Positions 7,634 to 24,500 of a DNA stretch of 64,000 bases are shown here, in pieces. A program made the position numbers and the translations under genes. Origin of the DNA: Acidobacteriota bacterium (lineage in GTDB: Bacteria > Acidobacteriota > Thermoanaerobaculia > Multivoradales > UBA5704). Positions within the stretch are counted from its first letter, which is position 1. Every line of letters starts with the position of its first letter. Under the pieces are notes generated by a model. That model was given only the letters and a program-made list of their open reading frames with translations, did no database searches and was not told where the DNA came from. The stretch lies in assembly GCA_040005235.1 (NCBI GenBank), contig JBDTZG010000004.1, positions 96,001-160,000 on the forward strand, written 5' to 3'.

Positions 7634-7689
7634 GGCGAGCTCTTTTCAGTGGGAATGTCGGTAGGAATTTCGGTGGTCGATAGGGAAAG

Positions 7690-8589
7690 CTATGAGGGGG
7701 TGCGCAGGGCTTCGTCTAACCCCAAGCTCTCGTCGATCCGGAACCAGCGATCGGCGGTGGCGATGCGAATTCTCTCACCGATCCGGTCTACCGTGCCCGG
7801 CGCGGGGCGTACCCCGCCGAAATCGGCCGCGATCTCCTCCTCAGGCTCTCCCGCGTGGATCTCCACCCGCTTGCCGTCGATCGTACCGAAAGCGCCCGGC
7901 CACGGGGGGGCCACGGCGCGCACCAGGCCATCCACCCGGGCGGCCGGCCACGACCAGTCGATGAGCCCGTCCTCCGGCCGGCGACGGCCCACTTTCGACG
8001 CCTTCGACTCGTCCTGGACGATCCGCGGCGCCGTGCCGGCGGCGACCTGGGGGAGCGCCTCGCGAAGCAGCTCGATGCCCGCCTGCTCAATCTCCAGGTA
8101 GAGCGAAAGGGCGGTGGCGCGTGGTGCGATCGGTACCGCCCGCTGGGCCACGATGTCCCCCGCATCGGCCCGGCGCGCCATGTGGTGGAGGGTGATCCCG
8201 GTTTCCCGTTCGCCATGGACGAGCGCCCAATTGATCGGAGCTCGGCCGCGATACGCGGGGAGGAGCGAAGGGTGAAGGTTAAGCGCCGCGATCTTCGCTG
8301 CGGCGAGAACCGAATCGGGAAGCAGGCTGCGATAGAAGACCGAGAGGATCAGATCGGGGGCGAGGTACGCGGCGAGCGTGGCTCCTGTGTCTCCCAGTTC
8401 CGCCATGTCTTCTGAGTAGACGATGCGCAACCCGTGCCTCACCGCGGCATCGGCCGGGGTCTTGTACCAGCGGTTCTCGTGCGGGTCATCGCGAGGGGTG
8501 ACGACCGCGAGCACCTCGTCGCCGCGCTCGACCAGCAATTCGACCGCCCGGTAGCCGATTTGGCTGTAGCCGAAGAAGAGGACCCTCAT
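7690..8589 (-). CDS. UDP-L-Ara4N formyltransferase (stand-alone ArnA N-terminal half)
   Basis: NLHPSLLPAYRGRAPINW, GITLHHM..RADAGDIV and RRRPEDGLIDW motifs. Start MRVLFFGYS overlaps the arnC stop. Confidence 0.88.
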   Translation of the reverse strand: MRVLFFGYSQIGYRAVELLVERGDEVLAVVTPRDDPHENRWYKTPADAAVRHGLRIVYSEDMAELGDTGATLAAYLAPDLILSVFYRSLLPDSVLAAAKIAALNLHPSLLPAYRGRAPINWALVHGERETGITLHHMARRADAGDIVAQRAVPIAPRATALSLYLEIEQAGIELLREALPQVAAGTAPRIVQDESKASKVGRRRPEDGLIDWSWPAARVDGLVRAVAPPWPGAFGTIDGKRVEIHAGEPEEEIAADFGGVRPAPGTVDRIGERIRIATADRWFRIDESLGLDEALRTPS

Positions 8590-9563
8590 CGCGCGGTCAC
8601 GCCTTCTTTCGAGTCGAAATTGAGGGTTTCGACCACGACGCTCCGGGGGCGTTGGCGGACCTCGACGTAGATCCGACCGACGTATTCGCCGAGCACGCCC
8701 ATCGCCATGAACAGAAGCCCCATCAGAAAGAAGAGGATCGCAAACAACGTGAACAGCCCCTCGGCCTCGGGCCCGCGGATCAACCGGCGAATCCCGAGGA
8801 ACAGGCCGAACCCTGAAGAGAAGAAGGCGATCAGCAGGCCGGTCCAGGTCGCGAAACGGAGCGGCAGCGAAGAGAAACCGGTGATCAAATCCGCCTGAAG
8901 CTTGAACAGCTTCCACAGCGAATATTTGGAATCGCCGACCGTCCGCTCGGCGTGGCCCACCGGCACCTCGGCGATCCGCCGGGCGAACTGGCAGGCGAGC
9001 GCGGGCACGAATGACGACCGTTCCGGGCAGCGGCCCATCGCGTCGACCACCGGCCGCGAATAGGCGCGCAGCATGCAGCCGTAATCGCGGAAATCGACCC
9101 CCGGCATCACCCGCCGCATCATCCGATTGATCTGGCGCGAGGCGAAGCGGCGGAAGAAAGAATCCTTCCGCTCCACCCGGTAGCCGCCGACCACGTCGAA
9201 ACCTTCCTCGGCTTTGGCGAGCAGCTTCGGAATGTCCTCGGGGGGATTCTGCAAATCGGCGTCGAGGGTCACGACGACGTCGCCACGCGACGCTTCGAGA
9301 CCGCTAAGCACCGCGGCGTGCTGGCCGTAATTGCGGTTGAACGAGATGACCTTGATCCGGCGATCGGCGGCGGCGATCTCGCGCAAGATTGGGAGCGACC
9401 GGTCGGAGCTGCCATCGTCGACCAGGATCGCCTCGACGCCCGACTTGCCCGGAGGTTTTCGGGATTCGCTCTCAATGCTGTCGAGCACCGGCCGGAGCCG
9501 CTCGTAGAGCGACGGCAAGTTCCCCTCCTCGTTCCAAACCGGAATGACGACCGAAAGGCGCAT
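8586..9563 (-). CDS. arnC: Undecaprenyl-phosphate L-Ara4FN transferase (GT2)
   Basis: VVIPVWNEE, VDDGSSD, RNYGQHAA, DADLQNPP and DYGCMLRAY motifs; two C-terminal TM helices. Confidence 0.9.
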   Translation of the reverse strand: MRLSVVIPVWNEEGNLPSLYERLRPVLDSIESESRKPPGKSGVEAILVDDGSSDRSLPILREIAAADRRIKVISFNRNYGQHAAVLSGLEASRGDVVVTLDADLQNPPEDIPKLLAKAEEGFDVVGGYRVERKDSFFRRFASRQINRMMRRVMPGVDFRDYGCMLRAYSRPVVDAMGRCPERSSFVPALACQFARRIAEVPVGHAERTVGDSKYSLWKLFKLQADLITGFSSLPLRFATWTGLLIAFFSSGFGLFLGIRRLIRGPEAEGLFTLFAILFFLMGLLFMAMGVLGEYVGRIYVEVRQRPRSVVVETLNFDSKEGVTAR

Positions 9564-9605
9564 CGAAGATTCTGCCTGCAAGAACCGGCCCCGTTCCTTG
9601 GGGCT

Positions 9606-10802
9606 TTAGGCTCCCGCCTGCTCCACCGCGTCGCGCACCGCGGCGACGACGTCCTCGGCATCTTCGTCGGTCATCGTCGGGAACAGCGGCAGCGAGACGA
9701 TCCGCGAGCAGACCTCTTCGGCGACGGGGAAGCGCCCCTCGGAAAAGTGGTACCGCTCGCGATAGTAGGCGTGGAGATGAACCGCCTCGAAATGGAGCCC
9801 GGTGCCGATTCCAAGATCCTTCAACCGGGCCATGAACGGCGCCCGCTCCGGAGCCAAGACCGTGAACAGGTGCCAGGGGTGGACGTGAGCGTACGGGGCG
9901 GTCCCCGGCAGTCCGAGCCCGGGCAGGTCGGAAAGGCCGCGCCGGTAGATCGCGGCGATCTCCGCCCGGCGGGCGTTGAACCGAGCGAGCTTCCGCAGCT
10001 GGTGCAGGCCGACGGCGGCGTGGAGATCGGTCAGGTTGTACTTGAAGCCCGGAAGCACCACGTCGTAAGTGGCGGGCGCCTTTTCGGTCGCTGAGTACGC
10101 CTTCCAGGCGTCGCGCCGCACGCCATGAAAGCGCCAGAGTTTGATTCGGTCCGCCAATTCGGCGTCATCGGTCGTGATCATGCCTCCTTCGGCCGAGGTC
10201 ATGTTCTTGATCGGATGGAAAGAGAAACAGGCGGCCGTGGTGCCCAGCTTCGTGGTCGCCCCGATCGGCGTTCCCTTGTACTCAGACCCCGCGGCATGGG
10301 CGGCATCCTCGATGATCGCCACATCCTCCCGCCCGGCTTCTTTAAGGACCGCCCGGATCGCGTCCAGGTCCGCCGGCTGGCCGGCGAAATGGACGGGTAC
10401 CACCGCCTTGGTGCGCGGGGTAAGGGCGGCGGCGAACGACGCCGGATCGAGGTTCCAGGTCGAGCGATCGACGTCCGCGAAAATCGGAGTGGCACCGCAA
10501 GCGATCACCATGTTCGAGGTCGCGGGCCAGGTGAGCGCGGGAACCACCACCTCGTCTCCGGGCCCGTACCCAAGAGCCAGGAAAATGACGTGCAGCGCCC
10601 CCGTGCAGGACGAGAACGCGAGCGCATGCTCGGCGCCCGACATGGCGGCGAATTCCTTCTCCAACGTTGCGGTGATCGGCCCGGTCGTAATCCACCCCGA
10701 ACGCAGGCAGCGGACGACCTCGTCGATCTCTTCCTCGCCGATGTCGGGGCGCGAAAAAGGCAGGGGCGGGTTCTTCGGCAGCACCGGCGGAGCGTAGTTC
10801 AT
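9606..10802 (-). CDS. arnB: UDP-4-amino-4-deoxy-L-arabinose aminotransferase (DegT/DnrJ/EryC1/StrS)
   Basis: LPFSRPDIG, SGWITTGP, EDAAHA, FSFHPIKNMTSAEGG and PGFKYNLTD motifs; first gene of the arn operon. Confidence 0.9.
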   Translation of the reverse strand: MNYAPPVLPKNPPLPFSRPDIGEEEIDEVVRCLRSGWITTGPITATLEKEFAAMSGAEHALAFSSCTGALHVIFLALGYGPGDEVVVPALTWPATSNMVIACGATPIFADVDRSTWNLDPASFAAALTPRTKAVVPVHFAGQPADLDAIRAVLKEAGREDVAIIEDAAHAAGSEYKGTPIGATTKLGTTAACFSFHPIKNMTSAEGGMITTDDAELADRIKLWRFHGVRRDAWKAYSATEKAPATYDVVLPGFKYNLTDLHAAVGLHQLRKLARFNARRAEIAAIYRRGLSDLPGLGLPGTAPYAHVHPWHLFTVLAPERAPFMARLKDLGIGTGLHFEAVHLHAYYRERYHFSEGRFPVAEEVCSRIVSLPLFPTMTDEDAEDVVAAVRDAVEQAGA

Positions 10803-10868
10803 TCCCGGCCGACCCGCAAACTCCGGAAGGCCCCGGAAGGAACCTGCGATGCGATAGTTTTCGGCCCT

Positions 10869-12554
10869 ATGAGCGAACCCCTCAATGCCCCTTCGAGCCG
10901 GAAATCCTGGCTCTCCGATGTCCTTCTCCTGGTTCTCGTCTTCGCCGCCCTGCTCGGCCCCTCGATCGGCCGCCGCGCGCTCTGGGAGCCGGACGAGGGG
11001 CGCTACGCCGAGATCCCACGCGAAATGGTCGCGACCGGCGACTACCTGACCCCCAGGATCGACGGAATCAAATACTTCGAAAAGCCGCCCCTCGTCTATT
11101 GGGCCACGGCCGCCGCGATCCGAATCGCCGGCACCTCCGAAGCGGCGGTTCGTTCACCCATCGCCCTCTTCGCCCTGCTCGGAGGGATCGCCGTCTACAT
11201 CGCAGGCCGCCGCCTCTTCGGCCGAGCCGCGGGACTCTGGTCGGCGCTCGTCCTAGCCACCTCGCCCCTCTGGCTCGGCCTAGGCCAAGTCCTCTCGCTC
11301 GACATGCCGGTCTCGGCCCTCCTCACCGCCTCGCTCCTAGCCTTCCTCCTGGCCGTCCGCGAGCCCCCGGGCTGGAACCGCCGCCTGCTCCTCTGGGCCT
11401 TCTACGCCTTCGCTGCGCTCGCGGTCCTCTCCAAAGGACTGATCGGCGTCCTGATCCCCGCCCTGGTGATCGGAGCCTGGATCCTCCTCACCCGCCAATG
11501 GCGCCTGATCCCCGTGGCCCTCGCCCCCACCGGAATCCTCCTCTTCCTCGCCATCGCGGCCCCCTGGCACCTTCTCGCCGCGCAAGCCCACCCGGAGTTC
11601 GCCTGGTTCTACTTCGTCCACGAGCACTTCCAGCGCTACCTGACCCAAGTCCACAACCGCTACGAGCCCCCCTGGTACTTCGTCCCCGTCCTCCTGGGGG
11701 GCCTGCTGCCGTGGACCCTCTTCCTTCCGCAGGCCCTCAAATCCGCCTGGCGCTCGGAACCCACAGAGCGCAGACAAACCCTCTTCCTAGCCTTGTGGGC
11801 CGCGCTCGTCTTCGGCTTCTTTTCGCTTTCCGACTCGAAGTTGATGCCCTACGTCCTCCCCGCCGTGCCGCCGCTGGCACTCCTCGTCGGAAGGTGGATT
11901 GCGGGCGTCGAGTGGGCGACTCAGCAACCCGGTCGCTCCCCGCTCCGCGCGGCGCTTTGGGTTCTCCTGCCCTTGGGGCTGATCCTCGCCTTGGCAGTAG
12001 CCTTCTGGCCCACGCCGACCGAAGGCACCAAAGACCGCGCCTTCCTCGATCTGCTCGGGGCTTACCGCCCCGCCCTGGCGATCTGCTTCGCCTTCATTGC
12101 CCTCGCGCCCTTCATCCTTGACCGCCTCGGCCAACGACGGGCTGGCATCGCCGCGCTGGTCCTAGGCAACGCCTTCCTCTTCACTACCCTGGGCGCGCTG
12201 GCCCCCCGCTTCGACGCCTACCGCTCGACGAAGCCCCTCGTCGAGGCTCTTTTGCCCCAGCTCCAACCCGGAGACGAAGTGGCGAGCTACCACTTCTACC
12301 CTCACACCCTCGCTTACTACTTGGGGCGCCGGATCACCATCGTTGGCTACACGGGGGAATTGGAATTCGGGGCTCGCCACGACGACACGACAGGCTGGGT
12401 GATTGGCGATTCGGAGTTCTGGCGGAGATGGAATGGGGCGGGGAGGGTGTTTGTGGTGGTGGACATGCAGCATAAAAAGCCCCTGCCGGTTGAGCTGGAG
12501 GGGGCGAGGGTGGTGGGGGAGGGGGGGATGTTTCGGGTAGTGATGAATCGGTGA
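10869..12554 (+). CDS. arnT: Lipid A 4-amino-4-deoxy-L-arabinose transferase (ArnT/GT83-like)
   Basis: LWEPDEGRYAEIPREM, YFEKPPL, LSKGLIG, FFSLSDSKLMPYVLP and GELEFG motifs; divergent from arnB. Confidence 0.88.
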   Translation: MSEPLNAPSSRKSWLSDVLLLVLVFAALLGPSIGRRALWEPDEGRYAEIPREMVATGDYLTPRIDGIKYFEKPPLVYWATAAAIRIAGTSEAAVRSPIALFALLGGIAVYIAGRRLFGRAAGLWSALVLATSPLWLGLGQVLSLDMPVSALLTASLLAFLLAVREPPGWNRRLLLWAFYAFAALAVLSKGLIGVLIPALVIGAWILLTRQWRLIPVALAPTGILLFLAIAAPWHLLAAQAHPEFAWFYFVHEHFQRYLTQVHNRYEPPWYFVPVLLGGLLPWTLFLPQALKSAWRSEPTERRQTLFLALWAALVFGFFSLSDSKLMPYVLPAVPPLALLVGRWIAGVEWATQQPGRSPLRAALWVLLPLGLILALAVAFWPTPTEGTKDRAFLDLLGAYRPALAICFAFIALAPFILDRLGQRRAGIAALVLGNAFLFTTLGALAPRFDAYRSTKPLVEALLPQLQPGDEVASYHFYPHTLAYYLGRRITIVGYTGELEFGARHDDTTGWVIGDSEFWRRWNGAGRVFVVVDMQHKKPLPVELEGARVVGEGGMFRVVMNR

Positions 12555-12601
12555 GAGGGGAAACCTCTGATTTCGCCGAGTTGTCCTACCAGGCCGGCGC
12601 G

Positions 12602-14800
12602 TCAAGAACTCGGACGCTTGGGCAGGCCGAGTTTTTCAACCCACCGCCGGTCGAGGTGGTAAAGCTCTTTTGGCTCGCCGTTGTCGTTCTCGTAGGCCTT
12701 CTTATAGCCTTCGAGAAGCCGAACGTGATCGGCCGAGTTGAAAAGATCTTCGGCCACGAGCCAAAGCCGATCCCCTGAGTATCTCTCGACGAGGCAGCGC
12801 GCCCCCAGTTCGTCCGCTGCACTTTCTAAAGCATTCTTCAAGCCAAGGAAGCCCGTCGGCCATGGAAAGTCCTGTGGAACGAGGGCTAGGAGGAAGGCAC
12901 GGCGCCGCGGCCTTGGCTCAGGATCTCCGAATACGGACTCCCGAAGGCCTCGCACAACTTGCAGCAGGTATTCCTCCCAACGCACGACCCGAGAGGTCGC
13001 TTTCGGGATCTCATAGCCGGGAACCGTTTCAGGGTCTTTTTCGCTGGAACCCGGCGCCTGGGAAGAACCAGATCCGGCTTCTTCCGACGAAACCCGGACT
13101 GAAGAGACTCCGCGCTCTTGGTCACGGAGCGCGCGCGCATAGTTTTCAAGAGCACTGTGGAGCCCGTCCCTGAACTCGGAGCGATCAACGACATTGTTAA
13201 AGGCATTGCAGCGCTCTTCGAGCGGCAGTGGCCGACGGCTCCCCAGAGATATCGCCCGCCAGAAACGCGCCCAGAGACTCGGCTGGCGTGCGGTGGCCCT
13301 ACGAAGCGCCTCCCAATGCGCGAGAAGCTGCAACATGGCCGCGGAATTGGACTCGGGTGGCGCTGGCGAATTTCCTAAAGGCAGATCCGCTTCGATCGGG
13401 AGTTTCAGGAAATCTTCGCTGGCCTTTCGGATTCTTTCCTTCGCCCCGATAGCGCGGAACGCCTCATGGGTTGCCAGAGCCTCTGGATCCACCGACCACT
13501 TCTGAGTACTGCCGGTCCCTGAGATTACGATTATGTCTTCCAGGCCGCTAAGTTCGCGCACATCTCCCTCGGTGGCAAACCGAATCTCGCGGAAACGGGC
13601 GCCAAGCCCCCTAAGCCTTTTCTGAATCTCACCTTGTATTGCGGAACCTAACTCATCGGTCTCACGCCGGACGGCCAAGCGCCAGCGGACCTCATGCGTC
13701 GGGTCGGCCACCGTTTCAGCCGGAGCTCGGGCATCGGTAGGGTCCTCTTTGTTCGTCTGTGGAGCGGAACCTGTATCGGTTCGAGAGGTTCCTTGCGGCA
13801 TCCCCTGTGCCAATGAAGCTTCGGTTTCTTGCAGCTCCAAGGCCGAAAAGTCTTCTCGAAAGAGCCACCGGGCCGCTGCAGCCCCGAAAGCCTCGGGAGC
13901 GAGCACTCGCCGCGTTTCCTCATCCGCGAGTCGCGCCATGCCCTGAACTGCGCAGATCGTTGCGCGCTGAACTTGGGTATCGAGCTGCGCGACGATGGCC
14001 CGAGCTGTGCGTCGAACGATGTCGCCCAACGCATCGCAGCGTTCCACTTCACCAAACAGAAAGCTGCGCGCGAACAACTCTCGGCGCGAGACCGCCGCTC
14101 TGATCGAGGGGATGCGTTCAAATTGAGCCTCGAATTCGATATTTCCCGCCCGCAGAGCCGTGATCTCTTGGAGTGCGGCATAGGTGTTGGCCTCAAGCCG
14201 ATTCGAGAAGTCGTGGTCCGAAAAGGCACCTGGAAGCGCAAAATAGCCAAGAATAAATGCCGTCCCGTCAAGACGTCGCGTAAGGTGCGCCACGTCGAGG
14301 AGCATCCCAGAGCCCGATCCTCCGCCCAGCGAGGTCACCAGCGCCACCCGCATACTGGTTTCCGGATCGGGTGCGGGGCTGGCGCAGCGAGCGCGAAATA
14401 TGCCCCTCTTGATAGACCTCTCGACACTCTCATCGGCGGCAAACAGTCCAAGGCGGCCGAGTGGACGGTAGCGCCGCGCTCCGGAAGGCTCTAGAGCATC
14501 AATGAGCTGGAACGATTTTCCCTCGGGAAACCAGGGAAGCAAATCGCGCCATCCCGAACGCCCCTCTTCATTCAGGCCGAGCTGCTCGAGAATCTCTGTG
14601 GCCTTTCGTGACGGTAAGTGTAGCCACTCCTCTGCGCCGAGCACGTTCCCTGGATCGCCGAGGGGCTTAGACTGATCGATCACCAGAAACGCCGTGGGCA
14701 CGCGCGAAAAGGATGCCATTTTCTCGAGAGACTTCTTTACTTCCACCGCAACCGAAGCGCCAAAGCCGCCGAGACCGAGTACTAGAGTCGGAGTTGTCAT
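12602..14800 (-). CDS. FtsZ/tubulin-like GTPase (Tubulin_2/FtsZl1-type), paralogue B, 732 aa
   Basis: TLVLGLGGFG, GARRYRPLGRLGLF, SLGGGSGSGMLLD (tubulin signature-like), GYFALP and ANTYAALQEI motifs. Confidence 0.85.
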   Translation of the reverse strand: MTTPTLVLGLGGFGASVAVEVKKSLEKMASFSRVPTAFLVIDQSKPLGDPGNVLGAEEWLHLPSRKATEILEQLGLNEEGRSGWRDLLPWFPEGKSFQLIDALEPSGARRYRPLGRLGLFAADESVERSIKRGIFRARCASPAPDPETSMRVALVTSLGGGSGSGMLLDVAHLTRRLDGTAFILGYFALPGAFSDHDFSNRLEANTYAALQEITALRAGNIEFEAQFERIPSIRAAVSRRELFARSFLFGEVERCDALGDIVRRTARAIVAQLDTQVQRATICAVQGMARLADEETRRVLAPEAFGAAAARWLFREDFSALELQETEASLAQGMPQGTSRTDTGSAPQTNKEDPTDARAPAETVADPTHEVRWRLAVRRETDELGSAIQGEIQKRLRGLGARFREIRFATEGDVRELSGLEDIIVISGTGSTQKWSVDPEALATHEAFRAIGAKERIRKASEDFLKLPIEADLPLGNSPAPPESNSAAMLQLLAHWEALRRATARQPSLWARFWRAISLGSRRPLPLEERCNAFNNVVDRSEFRDGLHSALENYARALRDQERGVSSVRVSSEEAGSGSSQAPGSSEKDPETVPGYEIPKATSRVVRWEEYLLQVVRGLRESVFGDPEPRPRRRAFLLALVPQDFPWPTGFLGLKNALESAADELGARCLVERYSGDRLWLVAEDLFNSADHVRLLEGYKKAYENDNGEPKELYHLDRRWVEKLGLPKRPSS

Positions 14801-14864
14801 GATTCATTCCTTTCCGAAAGTTCCTTGCTGCGGCCTCTCCCACAACTCCCAAGGTGGCCGCCCG

Positions 14865-14880
14865 AGCAATTCAGTGTCCG
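14865..14880 (-). promoter_or_regulatory. Possible internal sigma-54 (-24/-12) promoter for tubulin-like paralogue B
   Basis: Minus strand CGGACACTGAATTGCT is GG-N10-GC with a perfect TTGCT, about 65 bp upstream of ATG 14800. The -24 flank is imperfect. Confidence 0.4.
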
Positions 14881-14937
14881 GGTACAGACGTCTTGCGTCC
14901 TTGAAGGCAGGCAAAAACGAGGCTCAGCTACAATTCC

Positions 14938-15852
14938 TTACTGCCTCTCTGGGCCATGCTGACGTTGAAAGCTCTCGATGAGGTGCCGAGTTCGTCCTTC
15001 GAGAATCTTGCGAACGACTGGATCATGAGTACCTCCGACGAGCACTCCAGTTACTCGTGAGAGGAGCTCATGGTTGTAGCTGGCCAGACGAAAAATCGAA
15101 GCTTCAACCGAAGACTGATCGAGCACCTCTTGAATCAAGGCGTGGCCGACCACGACGAGTACGCGATAGTCGTCGGACTCGAGCCATTCGTCGGATGCTC
15201 CGTCGTACTGGGGCACGACAATCTCATCCGAATCCTTCACGCGGTGATCGCGGCGACCACAAAGGAGGCATGGTTCGGCGGGGGCCGATTGAAAACCAGC
15301 CGGAAGTTCTGGCGGAATTATGGAATCCTTCACCCGTTGCTTCTTTAAACTCTCGGAGCTGAAGCAAGCATGACAGAATAGGCACTTCTCCAATCGGGCA
15401 AGAAACGACCTTACTGCGAGCGGCTTAAGCGTCGCGTGTTCACAGATCGGACAGCGGCTTGCGCCGCGCGGCAGAAGGGCGAATTCTCCAGTAGGGAGGA
15501 GGAGCCCGCCCACGGGGCAGCCAAAAATGTTGGTGCAGAAGGAGTCGTCGAGCTCGCTGTGCTTTCGAATCCCAAAAGGCGACCTGCGCACTCCGCAGAC
15601 CGTACAGATCTTGATCTCGGTCTCGGGATCCGGGTCGTGGAGCGGCGATCGGACATGGCGAATAGCATTACAGCACGGGCAGTTTTCAAGCTCGCGACGG
15701 CAACGCGGGCAGCGCGACTGGTCAGCTAGGATCGGATAGCCACAGTGGCCGCAAGCCGTCTCGTAGCGGATCTCCTGATCTGCCTTTGCCGAGGCGCAAA
15801 GGAAGACGTTGCCGCCCGCGCGCCGAAAGAGGTAGCTCAGTGCGTGGGGCAT
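14938..15852 (-). CDS. Multi-zinc-ribbon (double-zinc-ribbon-like) protein
   Basis: Eight Cys pairs (CGHC, CPRC, CPCC, CTVC, CTNIFGC, CPIC, CLFC, CLLC). RBS GGAGAGGAG precedes ATG 15852, which overlaps the end of the upstream gene. Confidence 0.8.
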   Translation of the reverse strand: MPHALSYLFRRAGGNVFLCASAKADQEIRYETACGHCGYPILADQSRCPRCRRELENCPCCNAIRHVRSPLHDPDPETEIKICTVCGVRRSPFGIRKHSELDDSFCTNIFGCPVGGLLLPTGEFALLPRGASRCPICEHATLKPLAVRSFLARLEKCLFCHACFSSESLKKQRVKDSIIPPELPAGFQSAPAEPCLLCGRRDHRVKDSDEIVVPQYDGASDEWLESDDYRVLVVVGHALIQEVLDQSSVEASIFRLASYNHELLSRVTGVLVGGTHDPVVRKILEGRTRHLIESFQRQHGPERQ

Positions 15853-18800
15853 TTGAGCTCCTCTCCGGTGCAACAGTTTCGTCCCGTCGCGTGGTCGACC
15901 GGAATCAGCAACGTTCTACAGTTTGGGCAACGTACATTGTCAGGGAGTCCGTGATGGGCCGCTAACATTTTAAACTTTTCGGAGTCGTGCCCATTGACGC
16001 CGTCGAGATAGAAGCAGATGAGGTCCGCGGGCACTCGGAAGGTCTCATGGCTGCGATCTTTTTCATGGAGGTCTTCACAATTTGGACAGAACAATGCCTC
16101 GCGCACGTCCGGTCGCTTCCCGATCCGTGATTTTGGGAAGGCAATCGGGTCGCGCCGATGCTCTTCGATGCAGCGGGGGCAAAGCTCTTTGTCGATCGAG
16201 ATCTCTTCGGGAATCTCGCCGTGCCGACAGCAGGTCCACCACTCGGCATGGTTAAAGCCCTGGCAGAACGGGCAGCTTTTGTCCTGGCGCCGCGGATCCT
16301 TATGGAGTTCACTGGCTGTGCAATCAGGATTTCCGCATCGCGAACGGATGGGCCGGTGACAACCCGGGCAGTTCCGAGTATCCCTTGGTACATTGGCAAT
16401 GCCGTAGGAACAAGCGTCGTTGCCGCAGGTCACCGCGGCGGCTGAAACCGTGGTGCGAATATCTAGAAACTCCCGCAGCTTCAAGAAGCGACGATCAATG
16501 TGGTAAAGCTCAACGAATTCGGAGGCCTGATACGACTGATAGTAGTCCTCAATGTTGCGTATGTGGTCTGGAGGGTTGAAGAGATCCTCGGTATAGATCC
16601 AGATCCGCGAGCCGTGGTACCACTGGACCTGCACCTGACTATCAAGAATCTGGGCAGCGCTTGCCTTAATAAACTTAAGGAGATGATCCGCATCTTTCCC
16701 TGGCCATACCAGTCCTTTTGGCACCATGATGAATGCGAATCCCACGCGGAGGACATTCGGTGTCCGCCTCTCAAAGACGCTCTGTCGGCACCGTACGAGT
16801 GCTTCGCGCAGGCGAGCTTGGGCATCTTTTTCATTCAGTTCAAGGATCATGTGATCGCCACTTAGGCCTTGGTCCTGGCCGATTCGTTCTTGGACCAAAT
16901 CGAAAAGGCGTTGCCTCAGGACCTCTGGATCCTTCTCCGACGCGAATGTTCGGGCGCCCTCAAGAAGGGAGGGAAGCTTAGTGCGGAGGACTTCGAGTGC
17001 AATCGAGAGGAGAGGTTCAGTTAACTGGTAGAGCTTTGCGATCGGCGCAAGCTCGGCCTCGGGCACCCTTTCCCAGACTTCCTTTCCAGGAAGAGACTGT
17101 TCCGTTTCCTCAAGAGCTCTCCTGAGGGTCTCGCGAAGTTCCTTTATTGCCCGGACACGCAGAGTGGAATCCAAGCAACCCTGGACCGACGTATCGGCTA
17201 GGCCTGCTTGAACCTCGGGCAATGCTCGCCGAGATGCAATCATCTGATTGACCTTTGGCGACTTAGAGGGACGCCACCATCGCCTCTTCTGGTGACTGCT
17301 CAAGCGCGCTAACGCGTTTTCCCATCGCTTGCGGATTTCGGTAAGTGCCTCGGTGGTCTGCGGGAAGGGATAAAAGAAAAGCCGTGGATCATCAAGAAGT
17401 CCCTTCAGAAATCCCCGACGGGCAAGGGCACTCTCTCCCAATGAGGTGAGTGCGGCGCGGACGTGTGTGCGAACCTCGTCTCTGATTCCAGCGTCAAATT
17501 GATCGAAGGCGGACGGTAGTACTTGTCTCTTCTCCCCTGGCTCTAAGGTAGGAATGGGCGCAGTGAGAACTCGGAACAAATCCAACTTGCGGCTATAGAT
17601 CTTATCATCGGCGCTGAATTCAGAAAACGCCAGCTCGCCGAACTGTTTGAGTCGCTCGATCGACGCATTGACTTCGTCGGAATGTCCGCCGCGTAGTCGC
17701 TGGTCTATCCAAGCGAGCTGTTGCTCCAGGCCCTTGAAAATCTGCTCCTTCGCCTCATTTGCGTGGCGTTCTATGCGGCCTCGCCACTGCCGAATGAGTC
17801 TTCGGTGACTAGTATCATCAGACTGAGTGTCACCACTAGGTTTGAGATCCTCTTCACCCTCTCTTGGATCGACCGAGGTGATGGAGCCTGCTCGCATCAC
17901 CTCCATCATCGAGCGATTGGTTGCTTCGATCTTCGGCGCGAAGATTTGGGCCAGGAAGGAGGGTTGTTTTAGTGCTCGAAGTGCACTGTCGAAGAGTACC
18001 TCGTCGAGGTTCTCGATGGGTACGAGCGGTACGAACTGGCTACCAGAGGTACTAAAGCAGTGGGATCTCTTGCGACCTTGCTCCGTTAGCGCATCTCCCG
18101 AAACGACGTTTGCTGCGACCGAAAGCGTCTTGAGCTGAATGTCTCTCTGCAGTTGGCCCAGGATCGACTCGGCTATTCGCACGTTGGCGGCGAGAATCGG
18201 ATCGGTGCCGCAGAAGCCCTGGCTCGGACAAAGGAAAATGCGAGAAAAGGGTGCCTCACCGTGGACTGGAATGTCGAGGGGTGGAAGGTGGAAGTACCGC
18301 GCCTGAATCGGAATCTGCTGGTCCTTCAGATAACACAGCTCGCGGATACAGGCATATGCGTTCTGAAGGATTCGGCCGCCGTTGTCGACGTCCTGAAAGA
18401 CCTCGGGTAACATCAGGTAGCCGAAGACACGTGGCCGCCCCATCTGGCGCCTTGCGAGGTAGGCCATGTCGACGAGCATTCCGGCGCCCGTCCCTCCCGC
18501 AATCGAACCGACCAAGATGACTCGCTTGTCTTCAGAGAGCCGAACCGAGTCAACTTCACCGCCGATTTCGTGAAGCTTCGCTCGCACGGTTCTGCCGAGG
18601 GACTCGTCATTAAGGAAGAAACCGAGACGGCCGAGGACACGAAGCTGACTCGCTCCGTTGGCTTCGACTTCGCTGACCGGGATCGTGACGCGCTCAGGGA
18701 ACCAGTCAAGCACGTTTGCCCATGCGGGCTGATCGCCATGGACGCGATCGAGGTGGCGAAGCGCATCCTGGATCGTGCGGGGGTTAAGGAAAAGAAACTC

Positions 18801-18986
18801 ATCGTCGCCGAAATCCTCTAGTTCTCCGTTGCCTGCTGACTCCAAGGCAGAGCGGTCAAAATCAATGGCTAGAAAACTCGCTGGAACCCGCTCTCTCGCG
18901 GGGAGGCGAAGGTAGAGCCTCTTGAGGGCACGTAGTGTGAGTACTCCTGTACCGCCAAGGCCGATAACCAGAGTCGCAATCGACAT
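15837..18986 (-). CDS. FtsZ/tubulin-like GTPase (Tubulin_2/FtsZl1-type), paralogue A, with helical middle region and C-terminal zinc ribbons, 1049 aa
   Basis: TLVIGLGGTG, FLAIDFD, GASQLRVLGRLGFF, SIAGGTGAGMLVD, GYLMLP and NAYACIREL motifs; Cys-rich tail. Start overlaps the vWA stop (TAATG). Confidence 0.88.
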   Translation of the reverse strand: MSIATLVIGLGGTGVLTLRALKRLYLRLPARERVPASFLAIDFDRSALESAGNGELEDFGDDEFLFLNPRTIQDALRHLDRVHGDQPAWANVLDWFPERVTIPVSEVEANGASQLRVLGRLGFFLNDESLGRTVRAKLHEIGGEVDSVRLSEDKRVILVGSIAGGTGAGMLVDMAYLARRQMGRPRVFGYLMLPEVFQDVDNGGRILQNAYACIRELCYLKDQQIPIQARYFHLPPLDIPVHGEAPFSRIFLCPSQGFCGTDPILAANVRIAESILGQLQRDIQLKTLSVAANVVSGDALTEQGRKRSHCFSTSGSQFVPLVPIENLDEVLFDSALRALKQPSFLAQIFAPKIEATNRSMMEVMRAGSITSVDPREGEEDLKPSGDTQSDDTSHRRLIRQWRGRIERHANEAKEQIFKGLEQQLAWIDQRLRGGHSDEVNASIERLKQFGELAFSEFSADDKIYSRKLDLFRVLTAPIPTLEPGEKRQVLPSAFDQFDAGIRDEVRTHVRAALTSLGESALARRGFLKGLLDDPRLFFYPFPQTTEALTEIRKRWENALARLSSHQKRRWWRPSKSPKVNQMIASRRALPEVQAGLADTSVQGCLDSTLRVRAIKELRETLRRALEETEQSLPGKEVWERVPEAELAPIAKLYQLTEPLLSIALEVLRTKLPSLLEGARTFASEKDPEVLRQRLFDLVQERIGQDQGLSGDHMILELNEKDAQARLREALVRCRQSVFERRTPNVLRVGFAFIMVPKGLVWPGKDADHLLKFIKASAAQILDSQVQVQWYHGSRIWIYTEDLFNPPDHIRNIEDYYQSYQASEFVELYHIDRRFLKLREFLDIRTTVSAAAVTCGNDACSYGIANVPRDTRNCPGCHRPIRSRCGNPDCTASELHKDPRRQDKSCPFCQGFNHAEWWTCCRHGEIPEEISIDKELCPRCIEEHRRDPIAFPKSRIGKRPDVREALFCPNCEDLHEKDRSHETFRVPADLICFYLDGVNGHDSEKFKMLAAHHGLPDNVRCPNCRTLLIPVDHATGRNCCTGEELKCPTH

Positions 18987-20905
18987 TAGTGCGAACTTTC
19001 CGAGCATGTAAAGGTTTGGATCGGTGTCGCGCCGTCGACAGCTGGAGGAGAAAGTGACCAGGCTAAGAATACTGCTACCAGAAAGACGGAACCGAACCAA
19101 TACCGAGGTTTCACTCGATCACGTTCAATTTGCTCAATATCCTTATCCGTTGGCGGTTGCGGGGCCTGGGCAATTTTCATTTCTCGGCCCGAGTAGTACC
19201 AGCGAACCAGGAAGTAGGTAAGTATAGAAAGTGCGAGAGCGACGAGCACAGATCGGCCGATCGGTCGCGAGAGCCAAGAAAAAACGGACTCGGTCGAGAG
19301 TAAGTTGAGTCGCGAAGCAGTGCTGCCTATATTAGCGAGACCGCCAGCAAAAATTGTCAGCAGATGATTCCATTCTATCGCGGCAAAGAACTTGCGTTTC
19401 GTGAGTCCGATAACGATACTAATAAGTGTAACAACAACACCAACCACTCCTTGAATACTGTTCGTGTGGCTGCTCCCAACATCCTCTTCCGGTTTAGTGA
19501 GCGACGCCTCCGATTTTTCGACATGAACTTCAAATTGGTTCTCAGAAAGTTCGCTTTCAAACCGCATCGGAACCGCAATCGCGATGGCATAGTTCTTAAA
19601 GTCTTTGATGTCTAGATCTTCCGGTACGTTAAAACAGCGTTTAACTTTCCCCTCATCGCTTTCGCTTCCGATTCGCTGGAGAGTTACCTGATAGGTTTCG
19701 TCTTTTGTGGAATCTCCTCGCATCGAAGCGAAGACGCGGAGAAGACCATCGTGACGAAGAAAGTTTCGTTCAAAAACCGACCTCTCGACACTTGCCTCGA
19801 CCCAGCCAACCACTTTGTCTGCTGTCCCATCAACGCCTTCTCGGGATATGGCGTGAATTCTATAGCTCGCAGTTGTGGCAGGGCAGGCGTCTGAGGGAAA
19901 GAGAAGCTCATCTGCCGTCGACCTTTGCATGGCGAGAGCGTTCGCAAATTTAGAACCAATTAGAGGTAGGTCTTTGGGGTCACCGATGGCTATCCCGTTT
20001 GCGTCGATGCAAGCGAGTTCGATGCGTGAGAGGCGAACCTCTGCGGCATTCGGATTTTGAATTTCGAGGTGAATAGTTCTTTGCCGAACGCTAGGCAACG
20101 CTACTACGGAGAGTGGGAAATAGAGGCGACGTTTGATTTCTTGGGCAAGGTCGCGGGCATTAATGCCACCTGACCCGATTTCTCGCCGCTCCAAGCCCCG
20201 AACCTTCTCGAGGTCGTCGAGCACCTGGGTACGAAGACGGTTCTCAGCCTCGTCCGTTGCTGTCAGTGGGGCGACGCCGAGGAGGAGAGGATTTCGGGTG
20301 TCATTGCCACTCGCCGTGCGATCTTCAAGCCATGGTTTGAGGGTGATGTCCAGAACTTGCTGCCAGTCGGTCATCGCGCGTTGCCAGTAGGCAGGGTCGT
20401 TGGTTGATTTCTTACGGCCAATACGGGATGGCTCATGCACGAAGTCGCTGGCGATGATGGCCACCTCTCGCATGAACTTTCGATCGCGAGAGGAGAGCTG
20501 CGCCCGAAGGCTCTCGGCAACAGCTTGAAAATCGGTTCGCTGGAGCGCGGGATTCCGGAGGGGGTCGTTCTGAATGGCCAAGATCCTCTCTCTCAGAGTT
20601 TCGATGAGCGGGCGATCGAGTGAACCACCCGGCAGAGGATCTTCGTCAAGGATTCGGTCGGCGAAAAGAAAGAAGCGGACTTCGTCGTTCGCAGTCAGAA
20701 ATTCGGGCTCGCGAAGAAGGAGTTGGAGGGCCTCGACGGTTTTTACAAAGGGAGAGTCGTCCTTGTCAGGGTGCATGCTCCCCGAAAGGTCGAGGTACAC
20801 GAGAACCCTCTTCGAGAATGCCTCCTGCGATTCAGCGCTGGCGGCGCCAAAGGCGGGGCAGAAGAAGACATACAGGAGTAGAAATGGGTAAGTAGTTCGT
20901 CTCAT
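18986..20905 (-). CDS. Membrane-anchored extracytoplasmic von Willebrand factor A (vWA) domain protein
   Basis: N-terminal signal peptide; MIDAS DLSGS...TDF...SDF; beta-rich middle region; 3-4 C-terminal hydrophobic helices; RBS GGAG. Confidence 0.8.
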   Translation of the reverse strand: MRRTTYPFLLLYVFFCPAFGAASAESQEAFSKRVLVYLDLSGSMHPDKDDSPFVKTVEALQLLLREPEFLTANDEVRFFLFADRILDEDPLPGGSLDRPLIETLRERILAIQNDPLRNPALQRTDFQAVAESLRAQLSSRDRKFMREVAIIASDFVHEPSRIGRKKSTNDPAYWQRAMTDWQQVLDITLKPWLEDRTASGNDTRNPLLLGVAPLTATDEAENRLRTQVLDDLEKVRGLERREIGSGGINARDLAQEIKRRLYFPLSVVALPSVRQRTIHLEIQNPNAAEVRLSRIELACIDANGIAIGDPKDLPLIGSKFANALAMQRSTADELLFPSDACPATTASYRIHAISREGVDGTADKVVGWVEASVERSVFERNFLRHDGLLRVFASMRGDSTKDETYQVTLQRIGSESDEGKVKRCFNVPEDLDIKDFKNYAIAIAVPMRFESELSENQFEVHVEKSEASLTKPEEDVGSSHTNSIQGVVGVVVTLISIVIGLTKRKFFAAIEWNHLLTIFAGGLANIGSTASRLNLLSTESVFSWLSRPIGRSVLVALALSILTYFLVRWYYSGREMKIAQAPQPPTDKDIEQIERDRVKPRYWFGSVFLVAVFLAWSLSPPAVDGATPIQTFTCSESSH

Positions 20906-20938
20906 GGCTGCTCCAAAGGGTTTTAGTGAAATTAGGTA

Positions 20939-20954
20939 AGCAGGGTGCGTGCCG
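20939..20954 (-). promoter_or_regulatory. Sigma-54 (-24/-12) promoter of the vWA-tubulin operon
   Basis: Minus strand CGGCACGCACCCTGCT versus consensus TGGCACG-N4-TTGCW, with exact GG-N10-GC spacing, 34 bp upstream of the vWA ATG. Confidence 0.75.
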
Positions 20955-21052
20955 CAGAGGAAAATGCGCGCTGAAAGTGAGCTAAGTCGAACAGTTTTAG
21001 AGGCTTACGCCGGAGTGGACTAGCAGGACGGCCCACCAATTCGAGGCGTTCA

Positions 21053-21071
21053 GGAAACACCTACCGTTTCC
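21053..21071. promoter_or_regulatory. Inverted repeat GGAAAC-N7-GTTTCC: candidate enhancer (UAS) or terminator hairpin of the activator gene
   Basis: About 100-120 bp upstream of the -24 element and 30 bp downstream of the activator stop. Confidence 0.35.
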
Positions 21072-21099
21072 CTGGGGTAACGCTTCTCCCCCTCCCCCT

Positions 21100-22170
21100 C
21101 TAGGGTCTCTCGATCCCGTATTGGTGAAGCTTCGCGTAGAGCGACTTCGGACTGATCTCCAGGATGCGGGACGCGCGGCGTAAGTTAAAGCTGGTGAGTC
21201 GGCATACCTCGAGGATGTAGCGACGCTCGGCGAACTCTCGGACCTTGCGAAGCGATTGGGGTTGATCGAACCACGGGAGATCGCTGGTTCGCCAGGAGGA
21301 AGGGCAAACCGCTTCCACATCCTGAGGTGTGATGACTTGGCGTTCTCCAACCTCGGCGATAAGCCGGACGACGAGCTTGTCCAGTCCCCGCACGTTGTCG
21401 GGAAAGTTCCGCGCTTGAATTGCGGGCCAGCAGTCTTCGTCGAAATGGAGCTTGAGGTCGGCGCGCATCCCTTTGCGCCCAAGGTCGAGGAGGTTTCTCT
21501 GCAGGAGCTGTTCGCAAAGGAGGGGAATATCCTCTTTCCTCGCACGTAGCGGGGGAATTGAGAGCTCGAAGTAGTCGAGCCGGCTGACAAAGTCGCTCTT
21601 AAGTCGCCCGGCCTCGACTTCGGCGGGAACGTCCTTGTTCGTGGTCGCGACGAACCGCACATCGACGGCGTGAGACTTCTCAGACCCAAGGGAATAGAAG
21701 GTTCCGTCTACCAGGACGCGATGAAGACGGTCCTGCTGTGGTGGGCTCAGGCGCTCGAAGTCGTCGAGCACGAGGACGCCGCCGTGCGCCTGGTCGAGAC
21801 GCCCGCTGAGATCCCGCACTGCCCCAGTGAACGAACCGGCGCGATGCCCAAAGAGAGCGTTGTCGAGCTCGGGTAGGGAGCCGCAGTCGACAACTACGAA
21901 AGGTCCTCCCTTACGGGGGGATTGAAGATGAATATGGCGAGCAAGGTGACTCTTTCCGGAGCCAACCTCGCCTGTAATGAGAATGGGCCGATCCCCGCCG
22001 ATCGCCGCTCGACGGGCTTGGTCGAAGAGATTGGCGATCGCTTCGGACTGTCCGACGAAAGCGATGGAAGAACTCGCAACGCCTGATGTGGATCCCTCGG
22101 ACCATAAGGATCTCTGAGCCCTTGCACTTCGAGGGGCCGACTCCACAGGAAAAGTCCTCCGTTCAAGCAT
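21100..22170 (-). CDS. Sigma-54-dependent enhancer-binding protein (AAA+ plus Fis-type HTH) lacking an N-terminal sensor domain
   Basis: ILITGEVGSGKS (Walker A), PFVVVDC, LFGHRAGSFTGA, DVRFVATTNKD, IPPLRARKEDIP and C-terminal NLRRASRILEISPKSLYAKL. Confidence 0.92.
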   Translation of the reverse strand: MLERRTFPVESAPRSARAQRSLWSEGSTSGVASSSIAFVGQSEAIANLFDQARRAAIGGDRPILITGEVGSGKSHLARHIHLQSPRKGGPFVVVDCGSLPELDNALFGHRAGSFTGAVRDLSGRLDQAHGGVLVLDDFERLSPPQQDRLHRVLVDGTFYSLGSEKSHAVDVRFVATTNKDVPAEVEAGRLKSDFVSRLDYFELSIPPLRARKEDIPLLCEQLLQRNLLDLGRKGMRADLKLHFDEDCWPAIQARNFPDNVRGLDKLVVRLIAEVGERQVITPQDVEAVCPSSWRTSDLPWFDQPQSLRKVREFAERRYILEVCRLTSFNLRRASRILEISPKSLYAKLHQYGIERP

Positions 22171-22188
22171 AGAAAAAATGTAATGTAT

Positions 22189-22207
22189 CGATGAATTAAA
22201 TTCATCG
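22189..22207. promoter_or_regulatory. Perfect 19-bp palindrome CGATGAATT-A-AATTCATCG, candidate operator
   Basis: 9-bp perfect arms in an AT-rich tract 18 bp upstream of the activator start codon. Confidence 0.6.
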
Positions 22208-22782
22208 TTATTCTATCAGAGTAAAGCGAGTTGACTGACATGCCGACCAGAGAGCGCTCGGTACGCAGATCTACCTTCTCGATTAGAAGACGCGAGGTTT
22301 GGAGTGTCTTCAGTCCAACAGGGACAGACAAACCCCGCCGCGAAAGCGACGAGACAATCTTAAAGCTCCCCCCTTACGCCGTTCGTCCCCAGCCACCCCA
22401 CCGCCGTGACCTCTCTCGCCGACCCTTCGCCGCCAGCCGCCGCGCGAACCGCCCGGCGAACACCTTCGCCATCGCTCCTGAGCTAAAGGTTTTTGCTAGG
22501 GGAACCGCCCGGGGGGAGAGGGTGCGGCACTCTTCGGGGGGCGGAGACGCAGACGGTCGGGATGGCTCTGGCGTAGGTAATCCAGTCGATGGCGGCGGTG
22601 GAGGGTTCGGGGGATTCCAGGCCGACGATGATTTCGCCGCTGGTGACCTGGGGAGAACGCCCCCCCGCTCCACAGTCGATCCGGAGGTTTTTCAACTCCC
22701 AGATCCACGGTCTTGTCCCCCCTGGGCCTCTTGCCTCACCTTGATTGTTTAGGGTTCCCTCCTTGAACCTAGAGGAGTCGCT

Positions 22783-24363: not shown

Positions 24364-24500
24364 GCCCTCACCCCCGTCCCCTCTCCCATCCGCCCTCCCA
24401 CCGCCCGGGAGAGGGGCGCCCCCACCCGAGAGGTTGTTCTTCCCCCTCTCCCGGTTGGGCGGGAGTGCGGATGGGAGAGGGGGACCGAGGGGGCGAGGGC
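24364..24500. repeat. REP-like long imperfect inverted repeat between convergent genes
   Basis: GCCCTCACCCCCGTCCCCTCTCCCATCCG pairs with CGGATGGGAGAGGGGGACCGAGGGGGCGAGGGC; internal CCCCTCTCCC/GGGAGAGGGG sub-hairpins. Confidence 0.75.

Follow-up and report, generated by a model that had tools for sequence, protein, structure and literature searches.

A putatively self-regulated island of tubulin-like and vWA genes in an Acidobacteriota genome

In a 64,000-nucleotide stretch of an Acidobacteriota genome (contig JBDTZG010000004.1, positions 96,001 to 160,000; hereafter the window), five co-oriented minus-strand genes at 12602-22170 form an island that is best explained as one of the FtsZl1 (Pfam Tubulin_2)-von Willebrand factor A (vWA) systems, exchanged horizontally and carrying its own regulator. 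In gene order, they encode a bacterial sigma-54 enhancer-binding protein (bEBP; hereafter the activator), an exported vWA protein with transmembrane (TM) helices (vWA-TM), a tubulin-like protein with a predicted zinc-binding tail (TubA), a separate zinc-ribbon protein (ZnR) and a second tubulin-like protein (TubB). An earlier note, made from the DNA letters alone, had named these products, a -24/-12 promoter and a setting of lower-GC DNA; the gene calls, family searches and structure models described below bear out each of these assignments, and GC content in 1-kb bins drops to 0.50-0.61 between 13 and 23 kb, the remaining bins having 0.60-0.71. The gene coupling that it described can be read directly: the vWA-TM stop and the TubA start share a TAATG, and the TubA and ZnR genes overlap by 16 nt, with a ribosome-binding site, GGAGAGGAG, ahead of ZnR. 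A 137-nt spacer ahead of TubB carries GGAAAGGA. By synteny, the island extends from 12560 to 22365; the DNA outside these limits aligns with the same-genus genomes G001 and G003, whose cargo in the slot differs (genomes and related loci are referred to by G and L numbers). Chance is no explanation for this arrangement.

TubA (15837..18986, minus strand; 1049 aa from the ATG within the TAATG) and TubB (12602..14800, minus strand; 732 aa) are the sole two Tubulin_2 genes of the genome, which has its canonical FtsZ on another contig. Against Tubulin_2 (PF13809, cut-off 27 bits), TubA scores 145.5 bits (E 3.1e-42, aa 6-316) and TubB 107.2 bits (E 1.4e-30, aa 6-251). Both carry GTP-binding motifs, GLGGTG (aa 9) and AGGTGAG (aa 163) in TubA and GLGGFG (aa 9) and GGGSGSG (aa 159) in TubB, and G164, G165, G167 and G169 are invariant in a nine-sequence alignment. 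TubB, the second FtsZl1/Tubulin_2 paralog, has an N half, a shorter insert and a C half, and is without the zinc tail; it can be aligned to TubA over the N and C parts, with C halves that are 39% identical. No T7-type catalytic loop was identified in TubA, and neither protein has an FtsZ_C or Tubulin_C match in Pfam. Both are putative GTPases, and TubA may assemble in a GTP-dependent manner.

The structure model of TubA suggests a complete two-domain tubulin fold that is split by a helical insert of ~380 residues. Built with AlphaFold 2 (AF2) from a 55-sequence alignment (pLDDT 87.0, pTM 0.66), the model has an alpha/beta part (1-341), helices (350-733), a compact alpha/beta part (about 745-840) and the zinc tail. 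Foldseek returned 42 PDB matches (E<=1e-3), the listed ones being without exception CetZ, FtsZ, TubZ or tubulins. A search of 48,161 chains with VIA-align, which is independent of Foldseek, was led by CetZ 3zid_B (score 26.4; rmsd 3.8 Å over 305/342 residues; TubA residues 2-825), with CetZ2 (24.5; 3-826), FtsZ 2vaw_A (21.2; 1-804), TubZ (20.7; 1-823) and eukaryotic, Btub, Asgard and Odin tubulins (19.6-21.0; up to 849) also matched. Because nearly whole targets are covered and the aligned TubA range always ends within 804-849, we read residues 745-840 as the tubulin/FtsZ C-terminal domain and 342-719 as an insertion. TubA would thus comprise, on the minus strand, an N-terminal GTP-binding half (aa 1-341; nt 17964-18986), the helical insert (aa 342-719; nt 16830-17963), a C-terminal alpha/beta half (aa 720-845; nt 16452-16829) and the zinc tail (aa 846-1049; nt 15840-16451).

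This split-fold reading is drawn from one model and the ranges of one aligner, and comparisons with relatives fit it. A 1304-aa relative in locus L034 matches TubA 1-341 and then directly 720-1033, so that exactly the insert is missing. Between the window's genome (G000) and its same-genus relative G002, the TubA N half, C half and tail are 72%, 78% and 75% identical and the insert 44%. A profile of the C half and tail run against PDB sequences found no FtsZ or tubulin, and gave weak matches to RING/PHD/C1-type zinc fingers (E 0.087-0.87). A tubulin C-domain counterpart in FtsZl1 was likewise not found by sequence in the original description of the family (PMC2875224); the model suggests a reason, as it places the counterpart after the helical region, in a C half without detectable sequence similarity to FtsZ/tubulin C domains. 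Compared with CetZ, FtsZ, TubZ/PhuZ and tubulin structures, TubA is 10-16% identical and differs in its ~380 inserted helical residues and its zinc tail.

Four invariant sites of the Cys4 or Cys3His type occur in the TubA tail across 55 homologs. ZnR (304 aa; 14938..15852, minus strand) has four invariant Cys4 sites (C34/37/48/51, C58/61/83/86, C106/112/134/137 and C157/160/195/198), followed by a helical C-terminal part of ~100 aa. Zinc binding by ZnR and by the TubA tail is predicted from these sites. ZnR contains no Walker A motif or P-loop and has no significant Pfam match; in PADLOC-DB 2.0 it finds a negligible Cas10c match alone (E 0.072). Searches of the ESM Atlas gave, for ZnR, 'double zinc ribbon' leads below 0.9 with TM scores <0.3 and, for the TubA tail, no usable match. 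An apparent homology between ZnR and the TubA tail in hhalign (99.9%) was rejected as an artefact, the ZnR part of a fused protein, P0170, having lain inside the TubA alignment. In 13 of 16 close loci the ZnR gene is the next one after TubA, and ZnR is fused to a tubulin once in L034 and in both tubulins of G099, a more distant genome. These fusions argue that ZnR and the tubulin work together.

The vWA-TM protein (639 aa; 18986..20905, minus strand) begins with a signal peptide (aa 1-24, cleavage ..ASA|E), followed by a vWA domain with a complete metal-ion-dependent adhesion site (MIDAS; aa ~30-262; nt 20120-20818, minus strand), two beta-sandwich, immunoglobulin (Ig)-type domains (aa 263-472; nt 19490-20119, minus strand) and three to four TM helices (aa 481-505, 548-571 and 604-623, with a weaker one at 512-537). 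The MIDAS residues D39-x-S41-x-S43, T124 and D154 are invariant in all five orthologs; among 70 family members D154 is invariant, and D39 and S41 are at least 90% conserved. Pfam itself is silent on the window's protein (no match at E<=0.1); orthologs fall under the vWA cut-off (25.5 and 19.9 bits vs 27), and VWA_2 is matched by 30 of the 70 family members at E<=0.01. The fold is recognized in an AF2 model built on the family (pLDDT 87.1), with an alpha/beta domain at 32-262, beta-sandwiches at 266-470 and a helical membrane anchor, which has three segments of strong hydrophobicity and a weaker helix. With this model as query, Foldseek gave 318 PDB matches (E<=1e-3), foremost among them Ku70/80, PitA, SpaC, ITIH1 and integrin alpha-M, and its top matches are vWA-containing chains (probability 0.96-1.0). 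A family profile against PDB sequences gave the Ku80 vWA domain at E 0.0043, ITIH1 at 0.038 and 4rck at 0.051. vWA-TM is thus a diverged vWA family, uncaptured by the Pfam sequence model; an exhaustive profile search of 1.84 billion proteins found 119 representatives at E<=1e-3, 43 of them at E<=1e-30.

The activator (356 aa; 21100..22170, minus strand) consists of an AAA+ domain and a C-terminal HTH_8 domain (Sigma54_activat PF00158, 1.6e-44; an AAA lid; HTH_8, 2.1e-5), with a Walker A motif, GEVGSGKS, at aa 67 and a GSFTGA loop at aa 112. Because its AAA+ match starts at aa 39 and its first ~35 residues are unconserved among orthologs, the predicted layout is that of the PspF/HrpS type, with no N-terminal sensory domain. 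It scores 179.7 bits over residues 39-279 against the NCBIfam pspF model (cut-off 443.55), its AAA+ core matches best with RtcR-type models (216 bits, cut-off 650), and PADLOC-DB 2.0 returns the AAA+/HTH part of RtcR_PspF2 (7.4e-72), a generic AAA+ match. Other sensor-less bEBPs are held in check by a protein partner, PspF by PspA and HrpS by HrpV, and by analogy control through a protein partner would be expected for an activator that has no sensory domain. A perfect 8-3-8 palindrome, CGATGAATTAAATTCATCG, lies in AT-rich DNA 19 nt upstream of the activator start (22189..22207) and is possibly an operator or promoter element of the activator gene; it coincides with the end that the earlier note had set for the island.

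The 194-nt spacer between the activator and vWA-TM genes holds a putative upstream activating sequence (UAS) and a -24/-12 element. The UAS (21053..21081, minus strand) consists of the palindrome GTTACC-CCAG-GGAAAC (21066-21081), which occurs exactly once in the window, and a third half-site, GTTTCC (21053-21058). The predicted sigma-54 promoter, CGGCACGCACCCTGCT (20939..20954, minus strand; GG-N10-GC, 9/11 consensus positions), follows the UAS after 127 nt and precedes the vWA-TM ATG (20905) by 34 nt. Within the window, the loose -24/-12 pattern is unenriched (42 found vs 44.6 expected); the strict form (GG and GC fixed, at least 9/11) occurs 8 times in 128,000 positions, and none in the window reaches 10/11. 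Conservation across loci is a stronger argument for this predicted promoter than such counts. The region upstream of vWA-TM is readable in nine loci (the window, L027, L028, L029, L031, L032, L033, L117 and L118), and eight of them have a site of at least 9/11 at the equivalent place: 11/11 in L031 (TGGCACTCCAATTGCT), 10/11 in L029 and L033, and 9/11 in the window, L028, L032, L117 and L118. L027 has only a 7/11 site there. Across the readable loci, the sites lie 100-150 nt downstream of a GTTWCC-N4-GGWAAC-type palindrome, which is exactly that of the window in L027, L029, L032, L033 and L117 and a variant in L028, L031 and L118. The same genome encodes rpoN (2.1e-65). The sequencing runs listed for the island were four DNA runs from one study and no RNA run, which says nothing for or against its transcription.

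Related loci are patchily distributed. Full-length TubA orthologs are present in four of 60 relatives, G002 (same genus, 63% identity), G020 (60%), G028 (46%) and G039 (42%), and the C-terminal 350 residues of TubA found a match in one of 400 further genomes that were sampled from the phylum (G099). A search of genome contigs with TubA alone as query found no related loci, and family alignments were used instead; the related contigs are metagenome-assembled genomes of Thermoanaerobaculia/Acidobacteriota. The C half and tail together match 56 clusters in 5.8 billion proteins, all with Tubulin_2. A gene-neighbourhood check, which the earlier note had called for, found the identical order of activator, vWA-TM, TubA, ZnR and TubB in L027, L028 and the metagenome locus L117, and L116 shows the TubA-ZnR-TubB part of it. 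The activator stands beside the pair in nine of the 11 close loci whose upstream sequence reaches far enough, the exceptions being L030 and L034, and a member of the vWA-TM family is found in 13 of 14 loci scanned.

Beyond these close relatives, vWA-TM lies directly upstream of a zinc-tailed tubulin in contigs of Desulfarculus, Desulfocarbo, Desulfobacterales, Maridesulfovibrio and Lewinellaceae, and the same pair occurs on plasmid p1 of Azospirillum brasilense (L113). A sensor-less activator follows the tubulin gene in Lewinellaceae (L036; 349 aa, Sigma54_activat 1.5e-51) and in Azospirillum (348 aa). Since this trio recurs in Acidobacteriota, Lewinellaceae (Bacteroidota) and Azospirillum (Alphaproteobacteria), the conserved core is vWA-TM, a zinc-tailed FtsZl1 and a sensor-less activator, and ZnR and the second tubulin are lineage-specific additions. 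L029 is without a second tubulin, and L031, L032, L033 and L119-L121 add a second vWA-TM paralog and a second, zinc-tailed tubulin. The 1304-aa fusion in L034 (9998-13912, on Thermoanaerobaculaceae chromosome OY970330) joins the Tubulin_2 N half, C half, zinc tail, a ZnR homolog (aa 689-992) and, at its end, a PNP_UDP_1 nucleoside-phosphorylase domain (aa 1063-1262, E 3e-8); neither an activator nor a vWA-TM gene was detected within 10 kb of it. In the distant Acidobacteriota locus L115 (G099:C47:32000-51900, 7869-19544), one vWA-TM (655 aa) is followed by tubulins of 1419 and 1482 aa, each carrying a zinc tail fused to a ZnR-like region.

Several observations concern the neighbours and cousins of the module. 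A BrxL-like Lon protease (BrxL_N; BrxL_ATPase, 9.2e-122; a MIT_C phospholipase-D-like domain) is encoded directly upstream of the vWA-TM, tubulin and activator genes in L036 (46-2052 of the locus; Lewinellaceae contig JACJYP010000001). Ser/Thr protein kinase genes flank the module in L031 (19098-21668), L033 (19012-21483) and L028 (362-3304), with tetratricopeptide repeats (TPR) fused to the kinase in the first two and an asparaginase domain in L028; no kinase gene is present in the window's island. These kinases echo the kinase association of FtsZl1 in PMC2875224. A second, commoner Tubulin_2 family of 1260-1360-aa proteins is found in many relatives (L008-L012 and others), where the proteins match the TubA N half at E 1e-10 to 1e-22. 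This family branches as a clade of its own in the tree and is absent from the window's own genome.

The island occupies a slot whose content changes between sibling species. Its flanks are an ArnT-like glycosyltransferase gene, which converges on TubB, and a tryptophan halogenase gene, which is divergent from the activator, and DNA is conserved in same-genus genomes up to window position 12559 and again from 22366. Between these two genes, G002 holds the same island and G001 holds ~4.6 kb of unrelated genes (OmpA-like, thioredoxin-like). G003, with a halogenase that is 96% identical, holds a different cluster of ~12.4 kb (L110; G003:C2:68000-87900, 6901-19332), with six open-reading frames (ORFs) of 246, 939, 1085, 624, 471 and 530 aa; the 624-aa product is a Tubulin_2 protein (31.1 bits) that adjoins a protein with a weak vWA-family match (E 3e-5). 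The slot cargo of G003 and G001 has no convincing PADLOC match, the 246-aa ORF giving a weak JetC match (E 0.0025). When G000 is compared with G002, identity is 85% and 93% for the flanking proteins and lower for the island proteins: 83% for the activator, 77% for ZnR, 67% for TubB, 64% for TubA and 39% for vWA-TM (vWA 50%, Ig 33%, TM 32%). By these identities vWA-TM, the ectodomain protein, is the fastest-evolving product of the island.

Neither the pairing of tubulin with vWA nor the layout with two tubulins is new, the former having been published in 2010 and the latter in 2020. Makarova and Koonin described FtsZl1-vWA operons in 2010 and predicted a role in membrane remodelling (PMC2875224); the assertion in the earlier note that FtsZl1/Tubulin_2 proteins co-occur with vWA proteins and are little characterised is borne out there. 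FtsZl1 corresponds to Pfam Tubulin_2 according to PMC9871819. The island shares with the 2010 operons an FtsZ-like N domain with a GGGTGSG-type loop, a long helical region and a C-terminal domain; a vWA protein whose MIDAS is intact and which has a signal peptide, TM segments or both; and occurrence alongside canonical FtsZ, a patchy distribution and a function without experimental basis. It differs in having no protein kinase, P-loop GTPase or OmpA gene, and in adding the tubulin zinc tail, the four-zinc protein, the second tubulin and a dedicated sigma-54 activator with UAS and promoter. The terms 'zinc', 'sigma' and 'Acidobacteria' are absent from the main text of PMC2875224, the supplements lying outside that term search.

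Kaur, Burroughs, Iyer and Aravind (2020; PMC7159879) placed tubulin and vWA-TM systems among conflict systems. GTPase-centric systems of the GAP1-N2 type, which are defined by a GAP1 protein, a TRAFAC GTPase and an FNIII-repeat protein, were predicted there to build regulated cytoskeleton-like membrane assemblies and were linked with a multicellular habit. Their Firmicutes versions resemble the island in having two tubulin genes whose products carry helical extensions, and a multi-TM protein whose vWA domain is extracellular; the systems have N-terminal zinc ribbons on the GTPase, whereas the island has them on the tubulin and a non-GTPase partner, and the island differs further in its sigma-54 control and its Acidobacteriota lineage. 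No TRAFAC GTPase or FNIII match was found in the five island proteins with Pfam or PADLOC, the sole Walker A motif being that of the activator, and no GAP1 match was found either, in a scan whose models did not include a dedicated GAP1 profile. The suggestion in the earlier note that the island differs from described loci holds for the zinc-ribbon partners, the dedicated activator and the lack of a kinase or second GTPase class, but not for the combination of two tubulins with vWA-TM, which is already in PMC7159879. Full-text literature searches, which did not cover the supplements of PMC2875224 and PMC7159879, found no link of sigma-54 or an enhancer-binding protein to FtsZl1, no description of a zinc-ribbon tail or partner, and no functional study of any FtsZl1 system. 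As far as our searches reach, the cross-phylum core, the split-fold model, the ZnR-tubulin fusions, the slot with exchanged tubulin clusters and the fast-evolving ectodomain are new.

How might the island work? By analogy, a protein partner, which may be encoded in the operon, probably restrains the activator until a trigger frees it or leads to its production in active form. The operon would then be transcribed by sigma-54 RNA polymerase. The vWA-TM protein would insert in the inner membrane, where its MIDAS could bind a periplasmic or surface ligand, and TubA with ZnR bound may assemble in a GTP-dependent manner at this anchor, TubB modulating the assembly. Relatives may add an enzymatic effector, as in the PNP_UDP_1 domain fused to the tubulin-ZnR protein. 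We infer the contacts among TubA, ZnR, vWA-TM and TubB. The earlier note had envisaged an inducible module in which a MIDAS sensor acts on a two-subunit GTPase polymer; the activator, UAS and promoter and the exported vWA domain with its intact MIDAS are in keeping with the inducible sensor, and an obligate two-subunit polymer is not supported.

We tentatively favour, at somewhat less than even confidence, a role in an inducible conflict or invader response (anti-phage or anti-competitor) at the envelope. This role is favoured because of the hot-spot behaviour of the slot, the patchy distribution on low-GC DNA, the fast divergence of the exported part and the variable gene content, together with the PNP fusion, the single BrxL-like neighbour and the classification in PMC7159879. 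Several results weigh against it. PADLOC-DB 2.0 has no match for vWA-TM, TubA or TubB and only the negligible one for ZnR, and the window's version includes no recognisable enzymatic effector. Most genes that flank the module elsewhere have no link to defence (Ser/Thr kinase-TPR, alpha-2-macroglobulin, ABC-3), and the Lewinellaceae locus is the only one beside a BrxL-like gene. TubA-like genes on plasmids gave seven matches, one of them covering over half of TubA, and a phage collection gave one weak match. Window scans found no integrase, tRNA or terminal direct or inverted repeat bounding the island, so that exchange through the conserved flanks would be the likeliest route. Finally, control by sigma-54 and bEBPs is more typical of stress and metabolic regulons than of known defence systems.

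The main rival is an envelope-stress or membrane-remodelling response without immunity that follows the logic of the phage-shock-protein (Psp) system: vWA-TM would sense membrane or periplasmic damage, the activator would be released from an inhibitor encoded in the operon, and a tubulin-like polymer would stabilise or reshape the inner membrane, the part played by PspA/ESCRT-III in Psp. Psp likewise has a sensor-less sigma-54 activator beside the operon that it controls, a polymer-forming output at the inner membrane and membrane proteins as the likely source of the signal. The PspF layout of the activator (AAA+ and HTH only), sigma-54 control in a genome with rpoN, the operon's lack of an enzymatic effector and the mostly non-defence neighbours elsewhere are all consistent with such a response, as is the membrane remodelling predicted for FtsZl1-vWA operons (PMC2875224). 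The island's flanks also hold genes of the lipid-A/lipopolysaccharide (LPS)-modification type (ArnT-like, formyltransferase, epimerase), yet this adjacency is not conserved, given the different cargo that G001 and G003 carry at the site. Vertical inheritance would be expected of a housekeeping stress system, yet orthologs occur in only four of 60 relatives and one of 400 further genomes of the phylum, the low-GC DNA sits in a slot swapped between sibling species, and the exported part diverges far faster than the flanks. Moreover, the PNP_UDP_1 fusion in L034 better fits an effector than membrane repair. The island has no homolog of PspA/ESCRT-III (by Pfam), PspB or PspC, its polymer candidate is a tubulin-fold GTPase, and the activator scores under the pspF cut-off, so that the two systems are alike in their logic alone. 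That an operon product acts as an anti-activator is conjecture by analogy. On balance we consider this rival unlikely, if the strongest of the alternatives.

Less likely again is a role in cell-surface recognition or adhesion, to which we give little credence. Here, the MIDAS vWA and Ig ectodomain would bind another cell or a substrate, and the tubulins would organise or cluster the ectodomain from inside, in the service of cell contact, aggregation or development. Structural matches of the ectodomain do include the pilus-tip adhesins PitA and SpaC and the integrin I domain, but such matches stem from the vWA fold that they have in common and do not speak to function. Ser/Thr kinase genes, TPR-fused in L031 and L033, border the module there and in L028, as in the FtsZl1 loci of PMC2875224, and PMC7159879 links tubulin systems to a multicellular habit. 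In a diderm, however, an ectodomain of ~440 residues anchored in the inner membrane would sit in the periplasm and not at the surface, and the island includes no secretion, pilus or outer-membrane component by Pfam or PADLOC. A reading that joins the conflict and Psp-like ideas can also be framed, and as a whole it is improbable. In it, FtsZl1 proteins would be complete tubulin folds that are split, not truncated, and in this subfamily a sigma-54 switch like that of PspF would govern their production; one of the operon's own products, a tubulin or the zinc-ribbon partner, would silence the activator until the periplasmic MIDAS receptor is engaged; and a polymer decorated with zinc ribbons on the inner membrane would serve as an immune or damage-control structure. 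It would be a tubulin counterpart of the PspA/ESCRT-III response, ranging from Acidobacteriota to Azospirillum and Lewinellaceae.

Whatever the function, the role of TubB is a separate question of mechanism. An obligate TubA/TubB polymer is not supported, because some relatives are without TubB and others have a second tubulin with its own anchor. It is possible, although we would not bet on it, that the unit is a single tubulin, TubA, with vWA-TM and ZnR, and that TubB is the leftover of a second pair. By this account, that pair has lost its anchor gene and zinc tail, and TubB is at most a modulator and not half of an alpha/beta-like heterodimer. Loci with one tubulin exist (L029, L036 and L113), and second tubulins usually come with their own second vWA-TM gene (L031, L032 and L119-L121). 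In a tree of N halves, TubA falls in a slow-evolving clade of nine rows (support 92/98), and TubB joins the 'second tubulins' of L030 and L032 (89/91), whose group has far longer branches; deeper nodes are unsafe because of several long branches. TubB-type proteins are also rare (five matches). On the other hand, TubB retains both GTP-binding motifs and its C half, it stands at the same position in the window, L027, L028, L116 and L117, and its identity between G000 and G002 is close to that of TubA, which argues for selection on TubB and a function inside the operon.

Some features of the window lie outside the operon itself. Two large overlapping minus-strand ORFs (885 and 595 aa; 24500-28425), downstream of the halogenase, have no Pfam match at E<=0.001. 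A non-coding stretch upstream of the halogenase (22366-22648) adjoins the variable slot, is 78-86% identical at the DNA level in G001, G002 and G003, and has no Rfam match. Rfam and tRNA scans of the window as a whole returned no match, and sigma-70 promoter and terminator scans were at or under the expectation from shuffled sequence.

Within the tubulin superfamily, FtsZl1/Tubulin_2 ranks among the most diverged branches; it was described sixteen years ago. The island is notable for its conserved, dedicated sigma-54 switch, for the split-fold model and for the experimental access that it gives to a long-standing question. The operon is compact and comes with a sensor-less activator and a predicted promoter and UAS, a handle that is missing in other FtsZl1 loci; its expression could therefore, in principle, be induced on demand. 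Genes for vWA-TM, a zinc-tailed tubulin and an activator also form a related locus on a plasmid of a cultured bacterium, Azospirillum brasilense MTCC4039. If the split-fold model is true, it changes the place of the family in tubulin evolution and provides a natural tubulin that tolerates an insertion of ~380 residues between its halves. If the conflict reading is true, a cytoskeletal, membrane-anchored and sigma-54-controlled mechanism would be added to bacterial immunity.

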